Positions 8,451-39,195 of a stretch of DNA of 64,000 bases are shown here, in pieces. Both the position numbers and the translations under genes were made by a program. Numbering within the stretch: position 1 is the first letter of the stretch; each line of letters opens with the position of its first letter. The notes below the pieces were generated by a model. It did no database searches and was not told where the DNA came from. It saw only the letters and a program-made list of their open reading frames with translations. The DNA is from Escherichia coli. GTDB taxonomy: Bacteria > Pseudomonadota > Gammaproteobacteria > Enterobacterales > Enterobacteriaceae. The stretch lies in NCBI RefSeq assembly GCF_016026235.1, contig NZ_CP065613.1. The stretch is one strand, 5' to 3'.

Positions 8451-8495
8451 CGCTTACCCTGAATATTCAGGGTAAGCGTGAGAGTTAAAAAAGAA

Positions 8496-10775
8496 TTACA
8501 GCGGTTGGGTTTGCGCTTCAACCACGGCCAGCGCCACCATGTTGACGATACGACGCACCGATGCGATCGGCGTTAACACGTGAACCGGTTTCGCCACGCC
8601 CATCAGCACCGGACCGACAGTCACACCTTCTGAGCTGGAAACGCGCAGTAAGTTGTAACTAATGCGGGCAGCTTCCATGTTCGGCATCACCAGAATATTG
8701 GCAGAACCTTTCAAAGGGCTGTCCGGCATACGGTCGTTGCGAATCGCTTCCACCAGCGCTGCATCGCCGTGCATTTCACCATCAATCATCAGTTCTGGTG
8801 CACGTTCCCTGACCAGTTCCAGCGCCTGACGCATTTTGCTCGACGACGGGCAGTCAGAAGAACCAAAGTTGGAGTGCGACAACAAAGCAACGCGCGGCTC
8901 AATACCAAAACGACGGACAGTTTCTGCCGCCATCAAGGTGATCTCCGCCAGCTCTTCTGCGTCTGGTTCGTCATTGACGTAGGTATCGGCAATAAAGGTG
9001 TTACCACTCGGCAGCAGCAGCGCGTTCATTGCACCTGCGGTGTGAACGCCATCGCGATAACCAAAGACATTTTTCACCACGCTAAAATGTTCATGATAAT
9101 CACCCACCGTACCGCAGATCATTGCATCGGCTTCCCCACGCTGAACCATGATCGCGCCGATCACTGTCGGGTTACTGATCAGCGCCCGCTGCGCCTGTTC
9201 CTGAGTGACGCCGCGACGCTTCATGATCTGGAAGTATTCGGTCCAGTACTCTTTAAAGCGCGGATCGGATTCGTTATTGACGATCTCAAAATCAACGCCC
9301 GCTTTGATCTGCAAGCCCAGTTTCTGAATGCGCATTTCGATCACGTTCGGACGACCGATAAGGATCGGTTTCGCCAGTCCCAGCGTTACCAGTTCCTGAG
9401 TGGCATGCAGAACGCGCGCCTCTTCCCCTTCCGGCAGAACTACGCGCTTCGGCGCTTTGCGAGCCTGGGAGAAAATCGGCTTCATAAACAGGTTGGTTTT
9501 GTAAACGAACTCAGTCAGCTTGTCGATGTAGACGTCGAAATCAGCAATCGGACGCGTCGCCACGCCCGACTCCATCGCCGCTTTCGCGACCGCAGGAGCG
9601 ATCTTAACGATCAAGCGCGGATCAAACGGTTTTGGAATGATGTATTCCGGACCAAAGCTCAGATCCTGATCGCCATACGCTGAAGCCACCACTTCGCTCT
9701 GTTCCGCATGGGCCAGTTCTGCAATCGCGCGTACCGCCGCCAGTTTCATCTCTTCGTTGATGGCGGTTGCGCCAACGTCCAGCGCGCCACGGAAGATGAA
9801 CGGGAAGCAAAGGACGTTGTTGACCTGGTTTGGATAGTCAGAACGACCGGTGCAGATGATGGCATCCGGACGCACTTCTTTCGCCAGCGGCGGCAGAATT
9901 TCCGGTTCCGGGTTCGCCAGCGCCAGGATCATTGGTGCCCGAGCCATTTTCTTCACCATTTCCTGGGTCAGCACTTTCGGGCCGGAACAGCCGAGGAAAA
10001 TATCTGCGCCTTCAATCACATCATCGAGGGTACGTTTGCCGTCATCCACTACCGCATATGCGGCTTTGGTTTCCGCCATGTTTGGCTCACGGCCTTGATA
10101 GATAACGCCTTTTGAATCGCAAACCACGATGTTATGTTTTTGCAGACCCAGCGCTACCAGCAGGTTCATACAGGCGATTGCTGCAGCACCCGCGCCGGAA
10201 ACCACCATACGCACATCAGAGATGTTTTTCTCCACCACGCGCAAGCCGTTGAGGATGGCGGCAGTGCTGATAATTGCCGTGCCGTGCTGATCGTCGTGGA
10301 ATACCGGAATATTCATCCGCTCGCGCAGTTTCTGTTCAATATAGAAACATTCTGGCGCTTTAATGTCTTCGAGGTTGATGCCGCCGAAGGTCGGTTCGAG
10401 CGCAGCGACGACTTCAATAAATTTGTCCGGGTCGAGTTCATCAACTTCAATGTCAAATACATCAATTCCGGCGAATTTCTTAAACAGAACGCCCTTGCCT
10501 TCCATCACCGGTTTGCCCGCCAGCGCGCCAATGTTGCCTAACCCCAGCACCGCCGTACCGTTAGAGATCACCGCCACCAGGTTACCGCGCGCGGTATATT
10601 TGTAGGCTTTTAACGGGTCTTTTTCGATTTCAAGACAAGGTGCGGCAACGCCTGGTGAGTAGGCCAGCGCCAGATCGCGCTGCGTTGCCAGAGGCTTGGT
10701 TGGAGAAACCTGGATTTTCCCTGGAACTGGAAATTCATGGAAATCAAGTGCACTTTGTTTTAACTGGTCATCCAT
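8496..10775 (-). CDS. maeB: NADP-dependent malic enzyme (malic enzyme domain fused to a Pta-like domain)
   Basis: 759-aa ORF with N-terminal malic enzyme and C-terminal phosphotransacetylase-like halves. Confidence 0.92.
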
Positions 10776-11063
10776 TTGGTTGTTCCTTTCACGTAACGTT
10801 CACAAATAAAGTGTGTGGGCAACAGCCCCTGCCCACAACGTGGCGCACATTATTACCTTGCCGGAGTCTACAGACTTTGAGCAAGTCCAAACTCTCACCA
10901 TTAATATAATGTTTTGGTAATAATCCTATAACACTGATGTTACCTGCTTAATCCAGCAATACCATGCCTGTCTGCTATGCTTTTTTGATGCGTTTAGCGA
11001 AATTTCTCAGAAGTGTGAATTAACGCACTCATCTAACACTTTACTTTTCAAGGAGTATTTCCT

Positions 11064-12014
11064 ATGAACGAGTTAGACGGCATCAAACAGTTCACCACTG
11101 TCGTGGCAGACAGCGGCGATATTGAGTCCATTCGCCATTATCATCCCCAGGATGCCACCACCAATCCTTCGCTGTTACTCAAGGCTGCCGGATTATCACA
11201 ATATGAGCATTTAATAGACGATGCTATCGCCTGGGGTAAAAAAAATGGCAAGACCCAGGAACAACAGGTGGTCGCAGCGTGTGACAAACTGGCGGTCAAT
11301 TTCGGTGCTGAAATCCTCAAAATCGTACCCGGTCGCGTGTCAACAGAAGTTGATGCACGCCTCTCTTTTGATAAAGAAAAGAGTATTGAGAAGGCGCGCC
11401 ATCTGGTGGACTTGTATCAGCAACAAGGCGTTGAGAAATCACGCATTCTGATCAAGCTGGCTTCGACCTGGGAAGGAATTCGCGCGGCAGAAGAGCTGGA
11501 AAAAGAAGGTATTAACTGCAACCTGACGCTGCTGTTTTCTTTTGCACAGGCACGGGCCTGTGCGGAAGCAGGCGTTTTTCTGATTTCGCCGTTTGTCGGG
11601 CGTATTTATGACTGGTATCAGGCACGCAAACCGATGGACCCGTATGTGGTGGAAGAAGATCCGGGCGTTAAATCGGTGCGCAATATCTACGACTACTATA
11701 AGCAACACCACTATGAAACCATTGTGATGGGCGCGAGCTTCCGTCGCACCGAACAAATCCTCGCCTTAACCGGCTGCGATCGACTGACTATCGCACCGAA
11801 TTTGCTGAAGGAGGTGCAGGAAAAAGTTTCGCCAGTGGTACGTAAATTAATCCCACCTTCTCAGACGTTCCCACGCCCAGCTCCCATGAGCGAAGCGGAG
11901 TTCCGTTGGGAGCACAATCAGGATGCGATGGCGGTAGAAAAACTGTCTGAAGGCATTCGTCTGTTCGCCGTTGATCAACGCAAACTGGAAGATCTTCTTG
12001 CCGCCAAACTATAA
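11064..12014 (+). CDS. talA: Transaldolase A
   Basis: 316-aa ORF, transaldolase family; immediately upstream of tktB. Confidence 0.92.
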
Positions 12015-13131
12015 ACCAGCCACGGAGTGTTATATGTCCCGAAAAGACCTTGCCAATGCGATTCGCGCACTCAGTATGGATGCGGTACAAAAAGCCAATT
12101 CTGGTCATCCCGGCGCGCCGATGGGCATGGCTGATATTGCCGAAGTGCTGTGGAACGATTTTCTTAAACATAACCCTACCGACCCAACCTGGTATGATCG
12201 CGACCGCTTTATTCTTTCCAACGGTCACGCGTCGATGCTGCTCTACAGTTTGCTACATCTGACCGGTTACGACCTGCCGCTGGAAGAACTGAAGAACTTC
12301 CGTCAGTTGCATTCGAAAACCCCTGGCCACCCGGAAATCGGCTATACGCCCGGTGTTGAAACCACCACCGGTCCACTTGGACAAGGTTTGGCGAACGCCG
12401 TCGGACTGGCGATAGCAGAGCGTACACTGGCGGCGCAGTTTAACCAGCCGGATCATGAAATTGTCGATCACTTCACCTATGTGTTTATGGGCGACGGCTG
12501 CCTGATGGAAGGTATTTCCCACGAAGTCTGTTCGCTGGCGGGCACGCTGGGACTGGGCAAGCTGATTGGTTTTTACGATCACAACGGTATTTCGATTGAT
12601 GGAGAAACCGAAGGCTGGTTTACCGACGATACGGCAAAACGTTTTGAAGCCTATCACTGGCATGTGATCCATGAAATCGACGGTCACGATCCGCAGGCGG
12701 TGAAGGAAGCGATCCTTGAAGCGCAAAGCGTGAAAGATAAGCCGTCGCTGATTATCTGCCGTACGGTGATTGGCTTTGGTTCGCCGAATAAAGCAGGTAA
12801 GGAAGAGGCGCACGGCGCACCACTGGGGGAAGAAGAAGTGGCGCTGGCACGGCAAAAACTGGGCTGGCACCATCCGCCATTTGAGATCCCTAAAGAGATT
12901 TATCACGCCTGGGATGCCCGCGAAAAAGGCGAAAAAGCGCAGCAGAGCTGGAATGAGAAGTTTGCCGCCTATAAAAAGGCTCATCCGCAACTGGCAGAAG
13001 AGTTTATCCGTCGGATGAGCGGTGGTTTACCGAAGGACTGGGAGAAAACGACTCAGAAATATATCAATGAGTTACAGGCAAATCCGGCGAAAATCGCTAC
13101 CCGTAAGGCTTCGCAAAATACGCTTAACGCT

Positions 13132-13396
13132 GATATGACTTTCCGTGTCAAACCGGAATCTCTAATTTTGACGATTTTCTTTTTAGGTTTAATTCCCTGA
13201 GGGCGACGTAGCAGTAAATCCGACGGTGAATCACGCTGATATTCGCGGGTTGGATACCGCATTACAGAGGTCCGTCATATGAGCCTGCCACTTTCTTACG
13301 TCGCGAATCAGCTTTGTTCCGCCGTCGCCAAGCGCTAACGTGGGTTACTCTTGTACCGGGCTACGTCGCCTTCAGGGAACTGGTTATTCTCATTTT
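13132..13396 (-). ncRNA. Candidate structured non-coding RNA (bridge/seek-type guide RNA) in the 3' non-coding region of the IS110-family element
   Basis: No credible ORF; long-range inverted repeat CCCTGAGGGCGACGTAGC (13195-13212) pairs with GCTACGTCGCCTTCAGGG (13360-13377) at 17 of 18 positions; strand and exact ends not determined. Confidence 0.3.
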
Positions 13397-14524
13397 TTAT
13401 TTGTGACATTGTGGTTGTTGTGCGACAGACATTGCTATTCGGCCCATATCCCAGATAAAACCCGCCAGCTCACGTGCAACAGCAACAATTGTAATATTGA
13501 CATTCTTTCCTTTGGCCTGAAGTTTTCGATACCTCTTACAAAGCCTGAGTTGAGCATCCCATGCTCTGTCAATGACGGGGCGGGGTAAATTTTCCTGCCT
13601 TTTTTGTATTGCCGGACTGATGCGTGCCGGATGACGGTAACTCCACGCTGCCTCGACCAATAGCTTTCTGGCATAGCTGTTTCCGGCTTTGGTAATGCTG
13701 CCCTGATGTCTGCTTCCACCCGATGAATATTCTGATGGCGTGATACCAAACCATGACATCAGTTGTCGTGGATGTTCAAAACGGGTCAGATCACCCAGTT
13801 CAGAAATTAATCCAACCGCAGTAATAAACTGAATCCCTCGCATGGCTTGCAGCGCCTCTACTACCGGATACAGCCTCCATTCGGTAACGGCCTCCTTCAG
13901 GGCGGATTCCAGCCGTTCACATTGTGCCTGCCGGTCTTCTATTGTACGACGGTGTTCGTCAAAAGCTAATTGTCGCCAGGGACTTTCGAATGAGTATTTG
14001 CTGAGCCAGCGTCGGTGTGCAGGGCCCCAATCTGCTCGCCCGACATAATGGACCCCATGAACCAGAAGAAACGATTTCAGACGTTGCCTTGCATGCCGTA
14101 AATCATCGCGGGCAGATGCCCATGCCCGGGCCAAATCCCGGAATGCCTCATCTTCAATGCCGGGTACGTAGACAGCAGAAAGATCTCCTGCACGCAGTGA
14201 ACGCACAAGTCTGATGGCATCACGGCGATCGGTTTTAACCCGCTCCCCCGGTTTTTTCGGGATAAGTGAGGGGGCGCAGACCATGCAGTCAAAACCGGAT
14301 TTCACCAGCCGACGATAAAGTCCATAACCACAGGGCCCCGCTTCATAAACGATACTGACCTGCGATGACTTTGACCTGAGACGTTTACAAAGATTCTGAA
14401 TATCAGTAGGTGATGTGCCAATTTTACCCATCAGTTCAACAGGTTCTGAATTGATAGCATAAGCGACAGTAATCGATTCTTTGTGAACATCTAACCCGAC
14501 GTACAATGTGTTATTGTTGTTCAT
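13397..14524 (-). CDS. IS110-family (DEDD) transposase/recombinase, 375 aa
   Basis: ORF track 13397..14572; start assigned at MNNNNTLYVGLDVHK; RuvC-like acidic motifs (LYVGLDVHK, VYEAGPCGY, KTDRRDA) and a C-terminal GITPSEYSSGGS...SITKAGNSYARK region. Confidence 0.85.
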   Translation of the reverse strand: MNNNNTLYVGLDVHKESITVAYAINSEPVELMGKIGTSPTDIQNLCKRLRSKSSQVSIVYEAGPCGYGLYRRLVKSGFDCMVCAPSLIPKKPGERVKTDRRDAIRLVRSLRAGDLSAVYVPGIEDEAFRDLARAWASARDDLRHARQRLKSFLLVHGVHYVGRADWGPAHRRWLSKYSFESPWRQLAFDEHRRTIEDRQAQCERLESALKEAVTEWRLYPVVEALQAMRGIQFITAVGLISELGDLTRFEHPRQLMSWFGITPSEYSSGGSRHQGSITKAGNSYARKLLVEAAWSYRHPARISPAIQKRQENLPRPVIDRAWDAQLRLCKRYRKLQAKGKNVNITIVAVARELAGFIWDMGRIAMSVAQQPQCHK

Positions 14525-15559
14525 GCTGGCCTCCGTGGTGGAAATACCGGGGTGTAGCAACAGCTCACCCATGCGGCTCTGACAACGATGTTAACCCGCG
14601 TTAAATATCCCACGTTGGCCAGCATCTGTCTCACGGAAAGTCATACTGCCTTACGGGCCGATGCTACCGGAGCTGCTCGGCGGTTCGGCGGATCTGGCTC
14701 CCAGCAACCTGACCATCTGGAAAGGTTCTGTTTCGCTGAAGGAAGATCCGGCGGGCAACTACATTCACTACGGGGTGCGTGAATTTGGCATGACCGCTAT
14801 CGCCAACGGCATTGCGCACCACGGCGGCTTTGTGCCGTATACCGCAACGTTCCTGATGTTTGTTGAATACGCCCGTAACGCCGCGCGGATGGCGGCACTG
14901 ATGAAAGCGCGGCAGATTATGGTTTATACCCACGACTCAATTGGTCTGGGCGAAGATGGTCCGACGCACCAGGCTGTTGAGCAACTGGCCAGCCTGCGCT
15001 TAACGCCAAATTTCAGCACCTGGCGACCGTGCGATCAGGTGGAAGCGGCGGTGGGCTGGAAGCTGGCGGTTGAGCGCCACAACGGACCGACGGCACTGAT
15101 TCTCTCCAGGCAGAATCTGGCCCAGGTGGAACGTACGCCGGATCAGGTTAAAGAGATTGCTCGTGGCGGTTATGTGCTGAAAGACAGCGGCGGTAAGCCA
15201 GATATTATTTTGATTGCCACCGGTTCAGAGATGGAAATCACCCTGCAAGCGGCAGAGAAATTAGCGGGAGAAGGTCGCAATGTTCGCGTAGTTTCCCTGC
15301 CCTCGACCGATATTTTCGACGCCCAGGATGAGGAATATCGGGAGTCGGTGTTGCCTTCTAACGTTGCGGCTCGCGTGGCGGTGGAAGCAGGTATTGCCGA
15401 TTACTGGTACAAGTATGTTGGTCTGAAAGGGGCAATTGTCGGGATGACGGGTTATGGGGAATCTGCTCCGGCGGATAAGCTGTTCCCGTTCTTTGGCTTT
15501 ACCGCCGAGAATATTGTGGCAAAAGCGCATAAGGTGCTGGGAGTGAAAGGTGCCTGATG

Positions 15560-15597
15560 GTGATCGCCGGATGCTGATTGCCGGATGCGACGCTGAC
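15560..15597. repeat. Left half of a REP palindrome split by IS150
   Basis: GCCGGATGCGACGCTGAC immediately left of the IS; the matching half GCGTCTTATCCGGCCTACA lies at 17030-17062. Confidence 0.7.
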
Positions 15598-16456
<859 letters not shown>

Positions 16457-16481
<25 letters not shown>

Positions 16482-16978
16482 TTCTCCAGCTCCTGGCGCT
16501 TTTTTTCCAGGAGATGCTCCTGCATGGCTTTCAGATATGCATTTTCTGCGCGAAGATAACGCAGCTCATTCTTCATCTCTTCCGGCGTCATGTTTCCCTC
16601 GTTTTCATGGGTATCATTAGAACGGGTCATGCTTTTCTCCTTCCTGCGCCTGATAAAGGCCTCATTACCAGATTTGCGGTAGCCTTTTATCCAGTTTTTA
16701 ACCATGTTGTGGCTGGGAATGTTAAACCGGGCAGCTACCCGGGGTAGAGACTCAGAATGCCCGAGAGCATAAAGAACCACGCAAAGTTTATCTTCAGGAG
16801 AATAGCTACGCTTGTGTCTGCAATCCAGTGCCTGAGGACCGTGAAGAAGAAAAAGATTAATCCAGTGTGAGAGGCTGGTGTGAGAAAGTTGAAAGAGTTT
16901 TGCCGTAGAAATGATGCCTGCATGACCGGCCAGGTAATGATTTACAGCGGCAAGTTTTACTTCAAATGAATGTTTCAT
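16457..16978 (-). CDS. insJ: IS150 OrfA (InsJ), helix-turn-helix DNA-binding protein
   Basis: 173 aa starting MKHSFEVKLAAVNHYLAGHAG; leucine-zipper-like C-terminus. Confidence 0.88.
16499..16505 (-). other. Probable programmed -1 ribosomal frameshift heptamer A-AAA-AAG in the IS150 orfA/orfB overlap
   Basis: Reverse-strand CTG GAA AAA AAG CGC near the end of orfA, with orfB open in the -1 frame. Confidence 0.55.
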
Positions 16979-17029
16979 AAACTGCACCTTCAGATGTCAG
17001 ATTATGTCCAACATTTGGGGTGCAGTTCA

Positions 17030-21085: not shown

Positions 21086-22786
21086 GTGATTGTTAAACGA
21101 CCCGTCTCGGCCAGTCTGGCCCGGGCCTTTTTTTACATTGTGCTGCTGTCGATTCTTTCCACGGGTATCGCTCTGCTAACTCTGGCGAGCAGTTTGCGCG
21201 ACGCTGAGGCTATCAATATTGCCGGATCGCTGCGTATGCAGAGTTACCGCCTGGGCTACGACTTGCAAAGTGGCAGTCCACAACTCAATGCACATCGCCA
21301 GCTGTTTCAGCAGGCACTGCATTCACCGGTATTAACCAATCTCAACGTCTGGTATGTGCCAGAAGCAGTAAAAACTCGCTATGCGCATCTGAATGCCAAC
21401 TGGCTGGAGATGAATAATCGTCTCAGCAAGGGCGACTTGCCGTGGTATCAGGCCAATATTAATAACTATGTTAATCAGATAGACCTGTTCGTGCTGGCTT
21501 TACAGCACTACGCTGAACGCAAAATGCTGCTGGTGGTGGCGATTTCCCTAGCTGGCGGCATCGGTATTTTCACGCTGGTCTTTTTTACTTTGCGCCGCAT
21601 ACGCCATCAGGTGGTTGCCCCGCTGAATCAGCTGGTTACCGCCAGTCAGCGTATTGAACACGGGCAGTTCGACTCGCCGCCGCTGGATACCAGCCTGCCG
21701 AATGAGCTTGGTCTGCTTGCAAAAACCTTTAACCAGATGTCGAGCGAGCTGCATAAATTGTACCGTTCGCTGGAGGCGTCAGTAGAAGAAAAGACTCGCG
21801 ATCTCCACGAGGCCAAGCGTCGTCTGGAGGTGTTGTATCAATGTTCGCAGGCGCTGAACACCAGCCAGATTGATGTGCATTGTTTCCGCCATATTTTGCA
21901 GATTGTTCGCGACAATGAAGCGGCTGAATATCTGGAGTTAAATGTCGGTGAAAACTGGCGGATTAGCGAAGGGCAACCAAACCCGGAATTGCCGATGCAG
22001 ATTTTACCGGTGACAATGCAAGAGACGGTTTACGGCGAACTGCACTGGCAAAATAGTCACGTTTCATCATCAGAACCGCTGCTTAACAGCGTTTCGTCGA
22101 TGCTGGGACGCGGTTTGTACTTTAATCAGGCGCAGAAGCATTTTCAGCAGTTATTGTTGATGGAAGAACGTGCAACCATCGCCCGCGAATTGCACGACTC
22201 GCTGGCTCAGGTACTTTCTTACTTACGTATCCAGTTGACGTTACTTAAGCGTTCGATACCGGAAGATAACGCCACCGCACAAAGTATCATGGCCGATTTT
22301 TCCCAGGCGTTGAATGATGCTTATCGGCAGTTACGCGAGCTGTTGACTACTTTCCGCCTGACGCTGCAGCAGGCGGATCTCCCCTCCGCGTTGAGGGAAA
22401 TGCTGGATACGTTACAAAATCAAACCAGCGCCAAACTGACCCTCGACTGCCGTCTGCCAACCCTGGCGCTGGATGCGCAAATGCAGGTGCATTTGTTGCA
22501 AATTATTCGCGAAGCGGTGCTGAATGCGATGAAGCACGCCAACGCCAGCGAAATCGCCGTCAGTTGCGTCACCGCGCCGGACGGCAATCACACGGTTTAT
22601 ATCCGTGATAACGGGATTGGTATCGGTGAACCGAAAGAACCCGAAGGTCATTATGGTCTGAATATCATGCGCGAACGCGCGGAACGGCTAGGTGGGACGC
22701 TGACTTTTTCACAACCTTCCGGCGGCGGCACGTTAGTGAGTATTAGCTTTCGCTCTGCGGAGGGTGAGGAAAGTCAGTTGATGTAA
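21086..22786 (+). CDS. narQ: Nitrate/nitrite sensor histidine kinase NarQ
   Basis: ORF track 21071..22786; probable GTG start at 21086 (MIVKRPV) gives 566 aa; two transmembrane segments, HAMP and histidine kinase (ELHDSLAQ) regions. Confidence 0.88.
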   Translation: MIVKRPVSASLARAFFYIVLLSILSTGIALLTLASSLRDAEAINIAGSLRMQSYRLGYDLQSGSPQLNAHRQLFQQALHSPVLTNLNVWYVPEAVKTRYAHLNANWLEMNNRLSKGDLPWYQANINNYVNQIDLFVLALQHYAERKMLLVVAISLAGGIGIFTLVFFTLRRIRHQVVAPLNQLVTASQRIEHGQFDSPPLDTSLPNELGLLAKTFNQMSSELHKLYRSLEASVEEKTRDLHEAKRRLEVLYQCSQALNTSQIDVHCFRHILQIVRDNEAAEYLELNVGENWRISEGQPNPELPMQILPVTMQETVYGELHWQNSHVSSSEPLLNSVSSMLGRGLYFNQAQKHFQQLLLMEERATIARELHDSLAQVLSYLRIQLTLLKRSIPEDNATAQSIMADFSQALNDAYRQLRELLTTFRLTLQQADLPSALREMLDTLQNQTSAKLTLDCRLPTLALDAQMQVHLLQIIREAVLNAMKHANASEIAVSCVTAPDGNHTVYIRDNGIGIGEPKEPEGHYGLNIMRERAERLGGTLTFSQPSGGGTLVSISFRSAEGEESQLM

Positions 22787-36555: not shown

Positions 36556-37173
36556 ATGAACCGCTTTGTGGTGGCCGAACCACTGTGGTGTACAGGATGT
36601 AATACCTGTCTCGCTGTCTGTTCGGACGTGCATAAAACGCAAGGTTTACAGCAACACCCGCGCCTGGCCCTGGCGAAGACGTCAACACTCACTGCCCCTG
36701 TCGTGTGTCATCACTGTGAGGAAGCCCCTTGCCTGCAGGTCTGCCCGGTCAATGCCATCTCCCAGAGGGATGATGCGATCCAACTCAACGAAAGCCTCTG
36801 TATTGGCTGCAAGCTTTGCGCCGTGGTCTGCCCATTTGGCGCAATCAGCGCTTCAGGAAGCCGTCCGGTGAATGCCCCTGCGCAATATGTTTTTCAGGCT
36901 GAAGGCTCACTCAAAGACGGCGAAGAAAACGCGCCAACACAACATGCTTTGCTGCGCTGGGAACCGGGTGTCCAGACCGTCGCGGTGAAATGCGACCTGT
37001 GTGATTTCTTGCCAGAAGGTCCGGCCTGCGTTCGCGCTTGCCCGAATCAGGCGTTACGGCTGATCACCGACGATAGCCTGCAACGTCAGATGAAAGAAAA
37101 ACAGCGCCTTGCCGCAAGCTGGTTTGCCAATGGCGGGGAGGATCCCCTTTCCCTCACTCAGGAGCAACACTAA
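36556..37173 (+). CDS. hyfA: Hydrogenase-4 component A, 4Fe-4S ferredoxin-type
   Basis: 205-aa ORF with multiple CxxCxxCxxxCP motifs. Confidence 0.9.
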   Translation: MNRFVVAEPLWCTGCNTCLAVCSDVHKTQGLQQHPRLALAKTSTLTAPVVCHHCEEAPCLQVCPVNAISQRDDAIQLNESLCIGCKLCAVVCPFGAISASGSRPVNAPAQYVFQAEGSLKDGEENAPTQHALLRWEPGVQTVAVKCDLCDFLPEGPACVRACPNQALRLITDDSLQRQMKEKQRLAASWFANGGEDPLSLTQEQH

Positions 37174-39195
37174 TGGATGCCCTGCAATTATTAACCTGGT
37201 CGCTGATCCTCTATCTGTTTGCCAATCTGGCTTCGCTGTTTTTACTCGGTCTGGACAGACTGGCTATTAAGCTTTCCGGCATCACATCGCTGGTGGGCGG
37301 CGTGATTGGCATCATCAGCGGAATTACGCAATTACATGCTGGTGTAACTTTAGTCGCCCATTTTGCCACCCCTTTTGACTTTGCCGATTTAACCCTGCGA
37401 ATGGATAGCCTCTCGGCATTTATGGTGCTGGTTATCTCCTTGCTGGTGGTGGTTTGTTCGCTCTATTCATTGACTTATATGCGCGAATACGAGGGCAAAG
37501 GCGCGGCGGCGATGGGCTTCTTTATGAATCTTTTCATCGCATCGATGGTTGCCCTGCTGGTGATGGACAACGCTTTTTGGTTCATCGTGCTGTTTGAAAT
37601 GATGTCGCTGTCTTCCTGGTTTCTGGTCATTGCCAGGCAGGATAAAACGTCGATCAACGCTGGCATGCTCTACTTTTTTATCGCCCACGCCGGATCGGTG
37701 CTGATTATGATCGCCTTCTTGCTGATGGGGCGCGAAAGCGGCAGCCTCGATTTTGCCAGTTTCGCACGCTTTCACTTTCTCCGGGGCTGGCGTCGGCGGT
37801 GTTTCTGCTGGCCTTTTTCGGTTTTGGCGCGAAAGCCGGGATGATGCCGTTGCACAGCTGGTTGCCGCGCGCTCACCCTGCCGCACCATCGCACGCTTCG
37901 GCGTTGATGTCTGGCGTAATGGTCAAAATCGGTATTTTCGGCATCCTGAAAGTAGCGATGGATCTGCTGGCGCAAACGGGTTTGCCTCTGTGGTGGGGCA
38001 TTCTGGTGATGGCGATCGGCGCAATCTCCGCGCTCCTGGGCGTGCTATATGCGCTGGCGGAACAGGATATCAAACGGCTGCTGGCCTGGAGTACCGTCGA
38101 AAACGTCGGCATTATTTTGCTGGCAGTCGGTGTGGCGATGGACGGTCTGTCACTGCACGACCCGCTGCTCACCGTGGTTGGACTGCTCGGCGCACTGTTT
38201 CATCTGCTCAACCATGCGCTGTTCAAAGGGCTGCTATTTCTCGGCGCGGGCGCGATTATTTCGCGTTTGCATACCCACGACATGGAAAAAATGGGGGCAC
38301 TGGCGAAACGGATGCCGTGGACAGCCGCAGCATGCCTGATTGGTTGCCTCGCGATATCAGCCATTCCTCCGCTGAATGGTTTTATCAGCGAATGGTACAC
38401 CTGGCAGTCGCTGTTCTCACTAAGTCGTGTGGAAGCCGTAGCGCTACAACTTGCGGGTCCTATTGCTATGGTAATGCTGGCAGTCACTGGTGGGCTGGCA
38501 GTAATGTGCTTCGTAAAAATGTACGGTATTACTTTCTGTGGTGTGGTGCGCCGCGCAGTACACACGCTGAAGAGGCACAGGAAGTGCCAAATACGATGAT
38601 CGTCGCCATGCTACTGCTCGCGGCACTCTGCGTATTAATTGCGCTTAGTGCCAGTTGGCTGGCACCGAAGATAATGCATATTGCCCATGCGTTTACCAAT
38701 ACCCCTCCCGTCACTGTCGCCAGCGGAATAGCACTTGTACCCGGCACGTTTCATACACGGGTCACTCCTTCATTACTGTTGCTGTTACTACTGGCGATGC
38801 CTTTGCTGCCTGGCCTTTACTGGCTGTGGTGTCGTTCGCGCCGCGCAGCGTTTCGTCGCACAGGAGATGCCTGGGCATGCGGCTACGGCTGGGAAAATGC
38901 GATGGCCCCGTCAGGCAATGGCGTGATGCAGCCGCTGCGTGTGGTCTTTTCTGCGCTATTTCGTCTACGACAACAGCTCGACCCTACGCTGAGGCTAAAT
39001 AAAGGTCTTGCGCACGTCACCGCCAGGGCTCAGAGCACAGAACCCTTCTGGGATGAGCGGGTGATCCGCCCCATCGTGAGCGCCACCCAACGGCTGGCCA
39101 AAGAAATACAGCATCTGCAAAGCGGCGACTTTCGTCTCTATTGCCTGTATGTGGTCGCCGCACTGGTTGTGCTGCTAATCGCTATTGCCGTCTAA
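37173..39195 (+). pseudogene. hyfB: Hydrogenase-4 membrane subunit HyfB, disrupted by two frameshifts
   Basis: Three consecutive ORF segments in frames 0, 2 and 1 (37173..37844, about 37760..38547, about 38548..39195); total 2023 nt, which equals a 673-codon gene minus 1 plus 5. Confidence 0.8.

Follow-up and report, generated by a model that had tools for sequence, protein, structure and literature searches.

Interruption of tktB by an insertion sequence

The stretch of DNA analyzed here, 64,000 nucleotides (nt) of Escherichia coli contig NZ_CP065613.1 (RefSeq assembly GCF_016026235.1; hereafter, the window), carries the talA-tktB operon, in which the transketolase B gene tktB is divided in two by a copy of the insertion sequence (IS) ISSso6. 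An original prediction, made from the letters of the sequence, had stated that an IS splits tktB (12034-15557) after codon 366, with 366 codons on one side and 301 on the other, and that the talA-tktB layout is otherwise kept. We compared the locus base by base with tkt of E. coli FDAARGOS_943, which is intact and 2,004 bp long, and the split, the coordinates and both codon counts were borne out. Positions 12034 to 15557 of the plus strand run exactly from the start to the stop of tktB, talA is identical to the gene annotated as tal in FDAARGOS_943, and the 19-bp spacer between talA and tktB is likewise unchanged. The locus is composed as follows:

11064-12014, plus strand: talA (transaldolase A), intact, 316 amino acids (aa), first gene of the talA-tktB operon, from the map of open reading frames (ORFs)
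12034-13131, plus strand: tktB 5' fragment, codons 1-366, with the PP (thiamine-diphosphate) domain; exact 1,098-bp match to the intact tkt
13130-13131: core dinucleotide CT, left copy (read as AG in the orientation of the element), formed by the final two bases of codon 366 (GCT)
13132-13200, plus strand: IS-encoded tail of the chimeric ORF, 22 codons and a stop at 13198-13200
13132-14649, minus strand: ISSso6, 1,518 bp, left end at 14649 and right end at 13132; bounds from the empty-site comparison
14650-14651: right copy of the core dinucleotide CT, from the empty-site comparison
14652-15557, plus strand: tktB 3' fragment, codons 367-667 and the stop; exact match to the intact tkt

The left match to the intact gene stops at 13131 and the right exact match, of 908 bp, begins at 14650. 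The two share 2 bp (CT), and the insert measures 1,520 bp, i.e., the 1,518 bp of ISSso6 and one additional CT. The element lies antisense to tktB between codon 366 (GCT) and codon 367 (TAC), and the uninterrupted site in FDAARGOS_943 reads ...CTTAACG-CT-TACGGGCC...; the AG core was seen at both ends of other ISSso6 copies too. A chance resemblance is not plausible, as identity is 100% both between the two tktB halves and the intact gene and between the insert and other copies of a named IS. The right junction has an inverted match in tktB at 13100-13109, which was treated as a coincidence.

The 5' fragment is open into the IS, and its chimeric product comprises 388 aa, namely TktB residues 1-366 and 22 IS-derived residues. 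The earlier expectation that the truncated product would end inside the IS was thus correct, but not that it would do so within a few codons, since the frame stays open for 22. The 3' fragment, of 301 codons, begins without a start codon, as had been noted, but an in-frame ATG at 14661 (Met370) opens a 298-aa ORF (14661-15557), and no clear Shine-Dalgarno sequence was found at this ATG. In a scan of 10700-15700, promoter-like sites numbered 4, compared to 4.7 expected from shuffles, with no convincing outward promoter toward the 3' fragment, and terminator-like sites numbered 9, compared to 5.0 ± 2.6, which is no clear enrichment. With both counts near chance, expression of the fragments remains inferred. 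One public assembly (L002, 8574-9524, corresponding to window 14607-15557) has a called gene of 316 aa for the 3' fragment; this call begins at an ATC inside the left end of ISSso6, and its start is probably a gene-calling artefact.

Identity of the inserted element

The features that identify the element, all within 13132-14649, are given below:

13134-13147: right-end arm of the subterminal inverted repeat (TATGACTTTCCGTG), 14 nt, complementary at every position to 14632-14645
13146-13151, minus strand: perfect -35 hexamer (TTGACA) of the right end, facing outward, placed on the reconstructed circle junction
13397-14524, minus strand: ISSso6 DEDD transposase/recombinase gene, 375 aa; 391 aa if translation began at the in-frame ATG farther upstream, at 14572
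14632-14645: subterminal inverted repeat, left-end arm, 14 nt

The insert was 100% identical to copies labelled by PGAP as 'IS110-like element ISSso6 family transposase'. Such copies were found in 125 of 5,426 complete RefSeq E. coli genomes, full-length in 40, and FDAARGOS_943 has ISSso6 at 13 chromosomal and 3 plasmid places. The transposase was identical at 375 of 375 positions to the ISfinder ISSso6 protein (printed in the supplement of PMC11187229). It matched PF01548 (DEDD) and PF02371 (Transposase_20), both above the Pfam cut-offs, and scored 273.7 bits against the NCBIfam model NF033542 'IS110 family RNA-guided transposase' (cut-off 140). Its translation contains GITPSEYSSG, in agreement with the motif G-x-x-P-x4-S-G, and it distantly matched the IS621 transposase 8wt6 (E = 2e-5), a recombinase of solved structure. 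The 14-bp perfect repeat is inset by 2 nt at the right end and by 4 nt at the left end, in line with the 7-17 bp given for the IS1111 group, and the non-coding DNA amounts to 265 bp (13132-13396) 3' of the transposase stop versus 125 bp 5' of its ATG. Subterminal inverted repeats and a long downstream non-coding region are hallmarks of the IS1111 group (PMC11187229, PMC11208160), and ISSso6 has been listed as an IS1111 element with its bridge RNA in the right end (Durrant et al. 2024, supplement). The insert thus shows the domains and motif of IS110/IS1111 elements, their subterminal repeats, downstream non-coding region and specific target, and no conventional target-site duplication. By these sequence features it is one copy of ISSso6, of the IS110 family and IS1111 group. 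No further ISSso6 ends were found in the window.

Compared with ISSso6 as known from ISfinder, where it was first described in Shigella sonnei, the element shows no difference, and only its insertion site, tktB codon 366/367, is lineage-specific. Like ISEc11 and other IS1111 elements with seekRNAs (Siddiquee et al. 2024, PMC11187229), it combines a DEDD transposase, subterminal repeats and a downstream non-coding region with a short specific target and no duplication beyond the bases common to the target, although its transposase, at 375 aa, is longer than the 330-350 aa quoted for the family (PMC11187229). It also resembles ISEc11 in having a right-end -35 hexamer suited to a circle-junction promoter. 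The reconstructed excised circle would place TTGACA 17 nt upstream of the left-end sequence CAGTAT, and this putative promoter resembles the junction promoters documented for ISEc11 and ISEc21 (PMC11187229). Transposase transcription heads antisense toward the tktB 5' fragment. Whether it reads out into the 3' fragment had been proposed as a check, which became moot because the transposase gene lies on the minus strand, opposite to tktB.

Distribution of the tktB::ISSso6 allele

A megablast search with 12034-15557 against the 5,426 complete RefSeq E. coli genomes matched tkt in 5,425 of them, always in two pieces that make up 57% of the query. None covered at least 80% of the interrupted-locus query, and the tktB::ISSso6 allele was present in 0 of the 5,426, in keeping with the proposal that the strain carries a non-reference allele. 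The top match was FDAARGOS_943, with its intact, 100% identical 2,004-bp tkt. While missing from the complete RefSeq genomes, the allele is already in several GenBank assemblies. The chimeric 388-aa protein, possible only at this junction, was called on 8 public contigs, two of them longer than 1 Mb (3.2 and 4.6 Mb), and the junction is also in GCA_031665325.1. In the 4 assemblies compared by DNA, the locus was 99.99-100% identical to the window. On these matches tktB::ISSso6 is a genuine allele, and an assembly artefact, the point that had been named as able to overturn the prediction, is effectively excluded.

Positions 6034-64000 of the window are collinear with FDAARGOS_943 at 99.9-100% identity, with about 13 single-nucleotide polymorphisms (SNPs) in 38 kb, and the only structural differences are the ISSso6 insertion and a 4-bp indel in narQ. 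The latter gene (21086-22786) is intact in the window, with 566 codons, and FDAARGOS_943 has a 4-bp CTTA insertion (L036, 6661-6664) that leads to a frameshift. With tktB lost here and narQ lost in FDAARGOS_943, each of the two related strains has one private gene loss. A plasmid of FDAARGOS_943 carries sepA, virK and capU, along with many copies of IS600, IS1, IS66 and IS91, and from these plasmid genes of the related strain we infer that the background is an invasion-plasmid lineage of the enteroinvasive E. coli (EIEC)/Shigella type, pINV-like. IS expansion and gene loss are well documented in Shigella/EIEC (PMC7373316).

Effect on transketolase

In Pfam searches, the TktB N fragment had only Transketolase_N (residues 3-333), and the C fragment had Transket_pyr from profile position 20 of 174 onward, together with Transketolase_C. 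The C fragment thus keeps most of the Pyr domain, which is cut about 15-20 residues inside. Against TIGR00232 (NCBIfam) the N and C fragments scored 599.5 and 464 bits, respectively, both below the cut-off of 682.25, and no single-chain transketolase with PP, Pyr and C-terminal domains above this cut-off was found at tktB. In transketolase, each active site combines the PP domain of one subunit with the Pyr domain of its partner. Because the sites require both, and PP and Pyr are now divided between two ORFs, neither fragment would be catalytically active, the N fragment yielding a 388-aa protein with the PP domain only. The lack of essential domains in both fragments agrees with the earlier presumption that TktB function is lost.

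The original prediction had further argued that tktA makes such a loss tolerable. At least two tkt-like loci were found in each of the 5,425 matching genomes, FDAARGOS_943 having two, and a tktA backup is therefore very likely present in this strain. Of the two isozymes, TktA is the major and TktB the minor (PMC12361417). Expression of tktB is RpoS- and ppGpp-dependent, and auxotrophy and failure to grow in LB were seen only in the tktA tktB double mutant (bioRxiv 10.1101/2023.03.15.532724). The loss would be tolerated since the main transketolase activity comes from tktA. No polarity on other genes is expected either, as tktB is the last gene of the operon and is followed by an IS3-family element and then by the convergent ypfG. 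We suggest that tktB merits annotation as a pseudogene here, the strain presumably relying on tktA alone for transketolase.

Target site of ISSso6

Flanking sequences were collected from ten places encoding the identical transposase and from 21 metagenome contigs with element ends. The 14 distinct left and 12 distinct right flanks, representing about 16 independent sites, gave the consensus GTA-AG-CGTWAA in element orientation, with G as the first base in 13 of the 14 left flanks. The tktB site, CCCGTA-AG-CGTTAAG (CGTAAGCGTTAA), agrees with every consensus position, and the pair of empty and filled sites cleanly defines the ends, core and target of ISSso6. Judging from this agreement, the element probably did not insert here at random. 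The target differs from that of ISEc11, GTAAGCGTWAA for ISSso6 versus GTGAAAATACTG for ISEc11.

The 8-mer GTAAGCGT occurred at chance frequency in the window, with 1 further site versus 1.76 expected. This other site, at 8472-8479, lies just downstream of maeB and is free of ISSso6; its right half (CGTGAGAG) fits the guide described below poorly.

Some of the collected copies had junctions of their own kind. Two metagenome contigs (L024 and L033) have ISSso6 with an AG left junction and a GG right junction (..ATATC-GG-CGTCAACGG), and the GG may be a trace of recombination at a target with a core unlike the donor core. In GCA_002968185.1 (L007 and L008), two copies with different left flanks share one right flank, an IS66-family end beginning AGCGTACAGCC, which points either to repeated targeting of IS66 ends by ISSso6 or to recombination between copies. 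In GCA_031665325.1 (L010 and L011), a full copy is directly followed by a partial ISSso6 non-coding region, which begins at about element position 1316 in L010, inside the DNA of the right-target guide (GTT-AG-CGCTTGG), and at about 1359 in L011. These arrangements suggest occasional insertion of ISSso6 into the guide DNA of another copy, a sequence similar to the element's usual target.

Predicted bridge/seek RNA and candidate guides

The non-coding region 3' of the transposase gene contains the following predicted features:

13193-13379, minus strand: bridge/seek RNA (predicted), within the 265 bp of 3' non-coding DNA at 13132-13396
13331-13339, minus strand: candidate right-target guide 5'-GUUAGCGCU-3', element 1311-1319, in agreement with the target consensus
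13295-13301, minus strand: candidate left-target guide 5'-ACGUAAG-3', element 1349-1355
13233-13242, minus strand: segment 5'-AUAUCAGCGU-3', element 1408-1417, a direct repeat of the sequence that joins right end, core and right target

Folded in the sense of the transposase, the non-coding region reached -79.1 kcal/mol (z = -5.2 compared to shuffles), and a stem of about 21-25 bp, with 20-nt inverted-repeat arms at 13193-13212 and 13360-13379, would close the predicted RNA. A consensus fold of 6 variants had one compensatory pair in the outer stem and set the two guides on opposing sides of an internal loop, which itself flanks a local stem-loop. The minimum-energy helix GCUGAUUCGCG/CGCGAAUAUCAGC was set aside, since relatives break it without compensation and the consensus fold has a local hairpin instead.

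The candidate right-target guide has an 8-nt anchored antisense match to the tktB site, which 3.2% of shuffles equalled. ACGUAAG has the same sense as the left target and core, (C)GTA-AG, and would therefore pair with the bottom strand. Both anchored target matches together were reached in 17 of 5,000 dinucleotide shuffles. The segment AUAUCAGCGU was invariant among relatives and may serve as a left-donor guide, with three bases that match the target after it. In diverged metagenome relatives, the 3' half of the RNA was nearly invariant and the first guide varied. The guide ..GCUACGCU (UACGCU) of relative L018 adjoins AGCGTAC, the guides ..AUGACGCU of L032 and ..UCGACGCU of L035 (GACGCU) both adjoin AGCGTCC, and that of ISSso6 itself, ..UUAGCGCU (UAGCGCU), adjoins AGCGTTA. 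Position 6 of the right flank (T, A, C) thus tracks the guide base (A, U, G) over ISSso6 and the three relatives.

The predicted layout is that of the IS1111 seekRNAs, in which the segment matching the top strand lies 5' of the one matching the bottom strand, the reverse of the order in IS110/IS621 (PMC11187229), although the RNA of ISSso6 is predicted and the seekRNA of ISEc11 has been shown experimentally (PMC11187229). As in IS621 (Durrant et al. 2024; Hiraizumi et al. 2024), two guides in an internal loop would pair with opposite target strands and overlap at the 2-nt core; IS621 differs in having its RNA in the left end and the guides in reversed order, and ISSso6 in having long subterminal repeats. 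Expression of the RNA, its binding to the recombinase and its requirement in transposition have been demonstrated experimentally for ISEc11, ISPa11, ISKpn4, ISPst6, ISEc21 and IS621, that is, for four IS1111-family elements, one IS110-family element and IS621 (PMC11187229, PMC11208160). Together, the fold, the guide matches and the covariation support, in silico, an RNA-guided choice of the tktB site, and the collected flanks provide a testable guide-to-target map for the predicted RNA of this IS1111-type element.

On three metagenome contigs (L016, L017 and L029), a derivative of ISSso6 was seen in which the 3' end of the transposase gene is joined to the last ~110 nt of the element, without most of the predicted bridge/seek RNA. 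All three have it at the same site (AGCGTAAAGCC), and a copy of this type would depend on RNA supplied in trans.

Origin of the insertion and alternative explanations

We consider it highly probable that a genuine insertion of ISSso6, probably a recent one, inactivated tktB in an E. coli lineage of the enteroinvasive type. This IS1111-type element would be multiplying in the lineage, and its recombinase would have been directed to tktB by an RNA from the element's own 3' non-coding region. A number of points weigh against this account. The window and FDAARGOS_943 differ by too many SNPs to be clone-mates and represent related lineages, and the insertion is only loosely dated. Some ISSso6 copies sit at imperfect sites (AGCCTG, AGTGAA, GG core), the pairing of the right guide includes a G.T wobble at position 5, the left guide matches tktB over only 6 nt, which 11.7% of shuffles reach for this guide alone, and there is one insertion site per relative behind the covariation. 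The single-sequence and consensus folds disagree on internal helices, and the donor-binding part of the RNA is not cleanly mapped, its geometry being ambiguous when the IS621 model was tried. AUAUCAG (right end and core) and UACUGC (left-end complement) are both present, though not in one loop of the predicted folds. An Rfam 15 scan of 12900-14900 (E ≤ 1) gave no match to a curated family. The loss of TktB function is predicted from domain content, and tktA of this strain lies outside the window, so that the very likely backup is predicted from other genomes.

The part of this account that concerns guidance could be replaced by a chance landing without any RNA, the likeness of the flanks then reflecting a short motif read by the protein. 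The strictly conserved part of the target is indeed short (GTAAG, CGT), GTAAGCGT is no rarer or commoner in the window than chance, and the ISSso6 RNA is a prediction; yet the guides are complementary to both target halves, guide and flank co-vary in relatives, and RNA dependence is proven in the IS1111-family and IS110-family elements and IS621 named above, which makes an untargeted insertion unlikely. Selection for tktB loss in an invasive lineage (pathoadaptation), as opposed to a neutral by-product of IS expansion, would fit the pINV-like plasmid of the lineage, the IS-driven convergent gene loss known in Shigella/EIEC (PMC7373316) and the persistence of tktB::ISSso6 in several deposited assemblies. 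We nevertheless judge it very unlikely, since convergence is lacking (a tktB-length match with at least 80% coverage is retained in 5,425 of the 5,426 complete genomes, and ISSso6 lies in none of these matches), the related FDAARGOS_943 has an intact tktB, the tktB site is simply an excellent target match, and tktB is not mentioned in the main text of the Shigella IS survey (PMC7373316). The insertion could also be a reversible switch. Because ISSso6 adds only itself and one core dinucleotide, precise, RNA-guided excision could restore tktB scarlessly, by analogy with IS492 in eps of Pseudoalteromonas atlantica, likewise an IS110-family element that interrupts a chromosomal gene and adds a short repeat only, and whose precise excision is cited in PMC11208160. 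IS492 switches reversibly, whereas tktB::ISSso6 is likened to it by structure, with no evidence of excision seen, and with ISEc11 no re-joined empty site was detected (PMC11187229). A switch is highly improbable in our view; if it were true, the intact allele of FDAARGOS_943 might be a revertant and tktB would have toggled within the lineage.

Two further alternatives would leave a working TktB. Transketolases encoded by two genes split near the PP/Pyr boundary exist in other prokaryotes, the break in tktB falls near this boundary, and the ATG at 14661 opens a 298-aa ORF, so the two fragments might both be made, associate non-covalently and retain activity. The cut, however, lies some 15-20 residues into Pyr, with the C fragment starting at position 20 of the 174-position profile, no above-chance promoter-like site faces the 3' fragment, and its ATG is without a clear Shine-Dalgarno sequence. 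Moreover, transcription to the 3' fragment must cross 1.5 kb of antisense IS with terminator-like hairpins, and the 22-residue foreign tail could hinder assembly of the fragments, making a split but functional enzyme exceedingly improbable. Finally, the gene may really be intact, with a repeat mis-placed into it during assembly: IS elements often break or confuse short-read assemblies, one public contig with the allele (L004) terminates inside the IS, and no complete RefSeq genome has the insertion. Against this, the junction protein is on 8 contigs from different assemblies, including those of 3.2 and 4.6 Mb, and the junction is in one further assembly. The junctions are also base-perfect, with the canonical core on both sides and on a consensus target, features that a mis-join would not reproduce, and the probability of an artefact is negligible.

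A genuine ISSso6 insertion, as preferred here, is an ordinary IS knock-out of a dispensable backup gene by an element and a mechanism already known in kind, and nothing in it is likely to surprise a specialist. It is comparable to the IS-derived pseudogenes of Shigella/EIEC, invasion-plasmid lineages in which IS expansion hits metabolic genes (Hawkey et al. 2020, PMC7373316); in that survey ISSso6 is named only among the 12 screened IS of S. sonnei 53G. For one group of E. coli assemblies of the enteroinvasive type, the junction can serve as a lineage marker.

Other disrupted and mobile sequences in the window

A second pseudogene of the window, common to the lineage, is hyfB (hydrogenase 4 subunit B; 37173-39195), which is split into the overlapping ORFs 37173-37844 and 37753-39195; FDAARGOS_943 has the identical sequence, annotated there as 'frameshifted'. 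About 40 bp past the tktB stop, between tktB and ypfG, lies an IS3-family element of ~1,432 bp (15598-17029; coding sequences 15630-16352 and 16457-16987, minus strand), with imperfect terminal repeats embedded in palindromes like those of repetitive extragenic palindromic (REP) sequences. This element is common to FDAARGOS_943, where it is annotated as 'IS3 family transposase, programmed frameshift', and in size and REP context it is reminiscent of IS1397.

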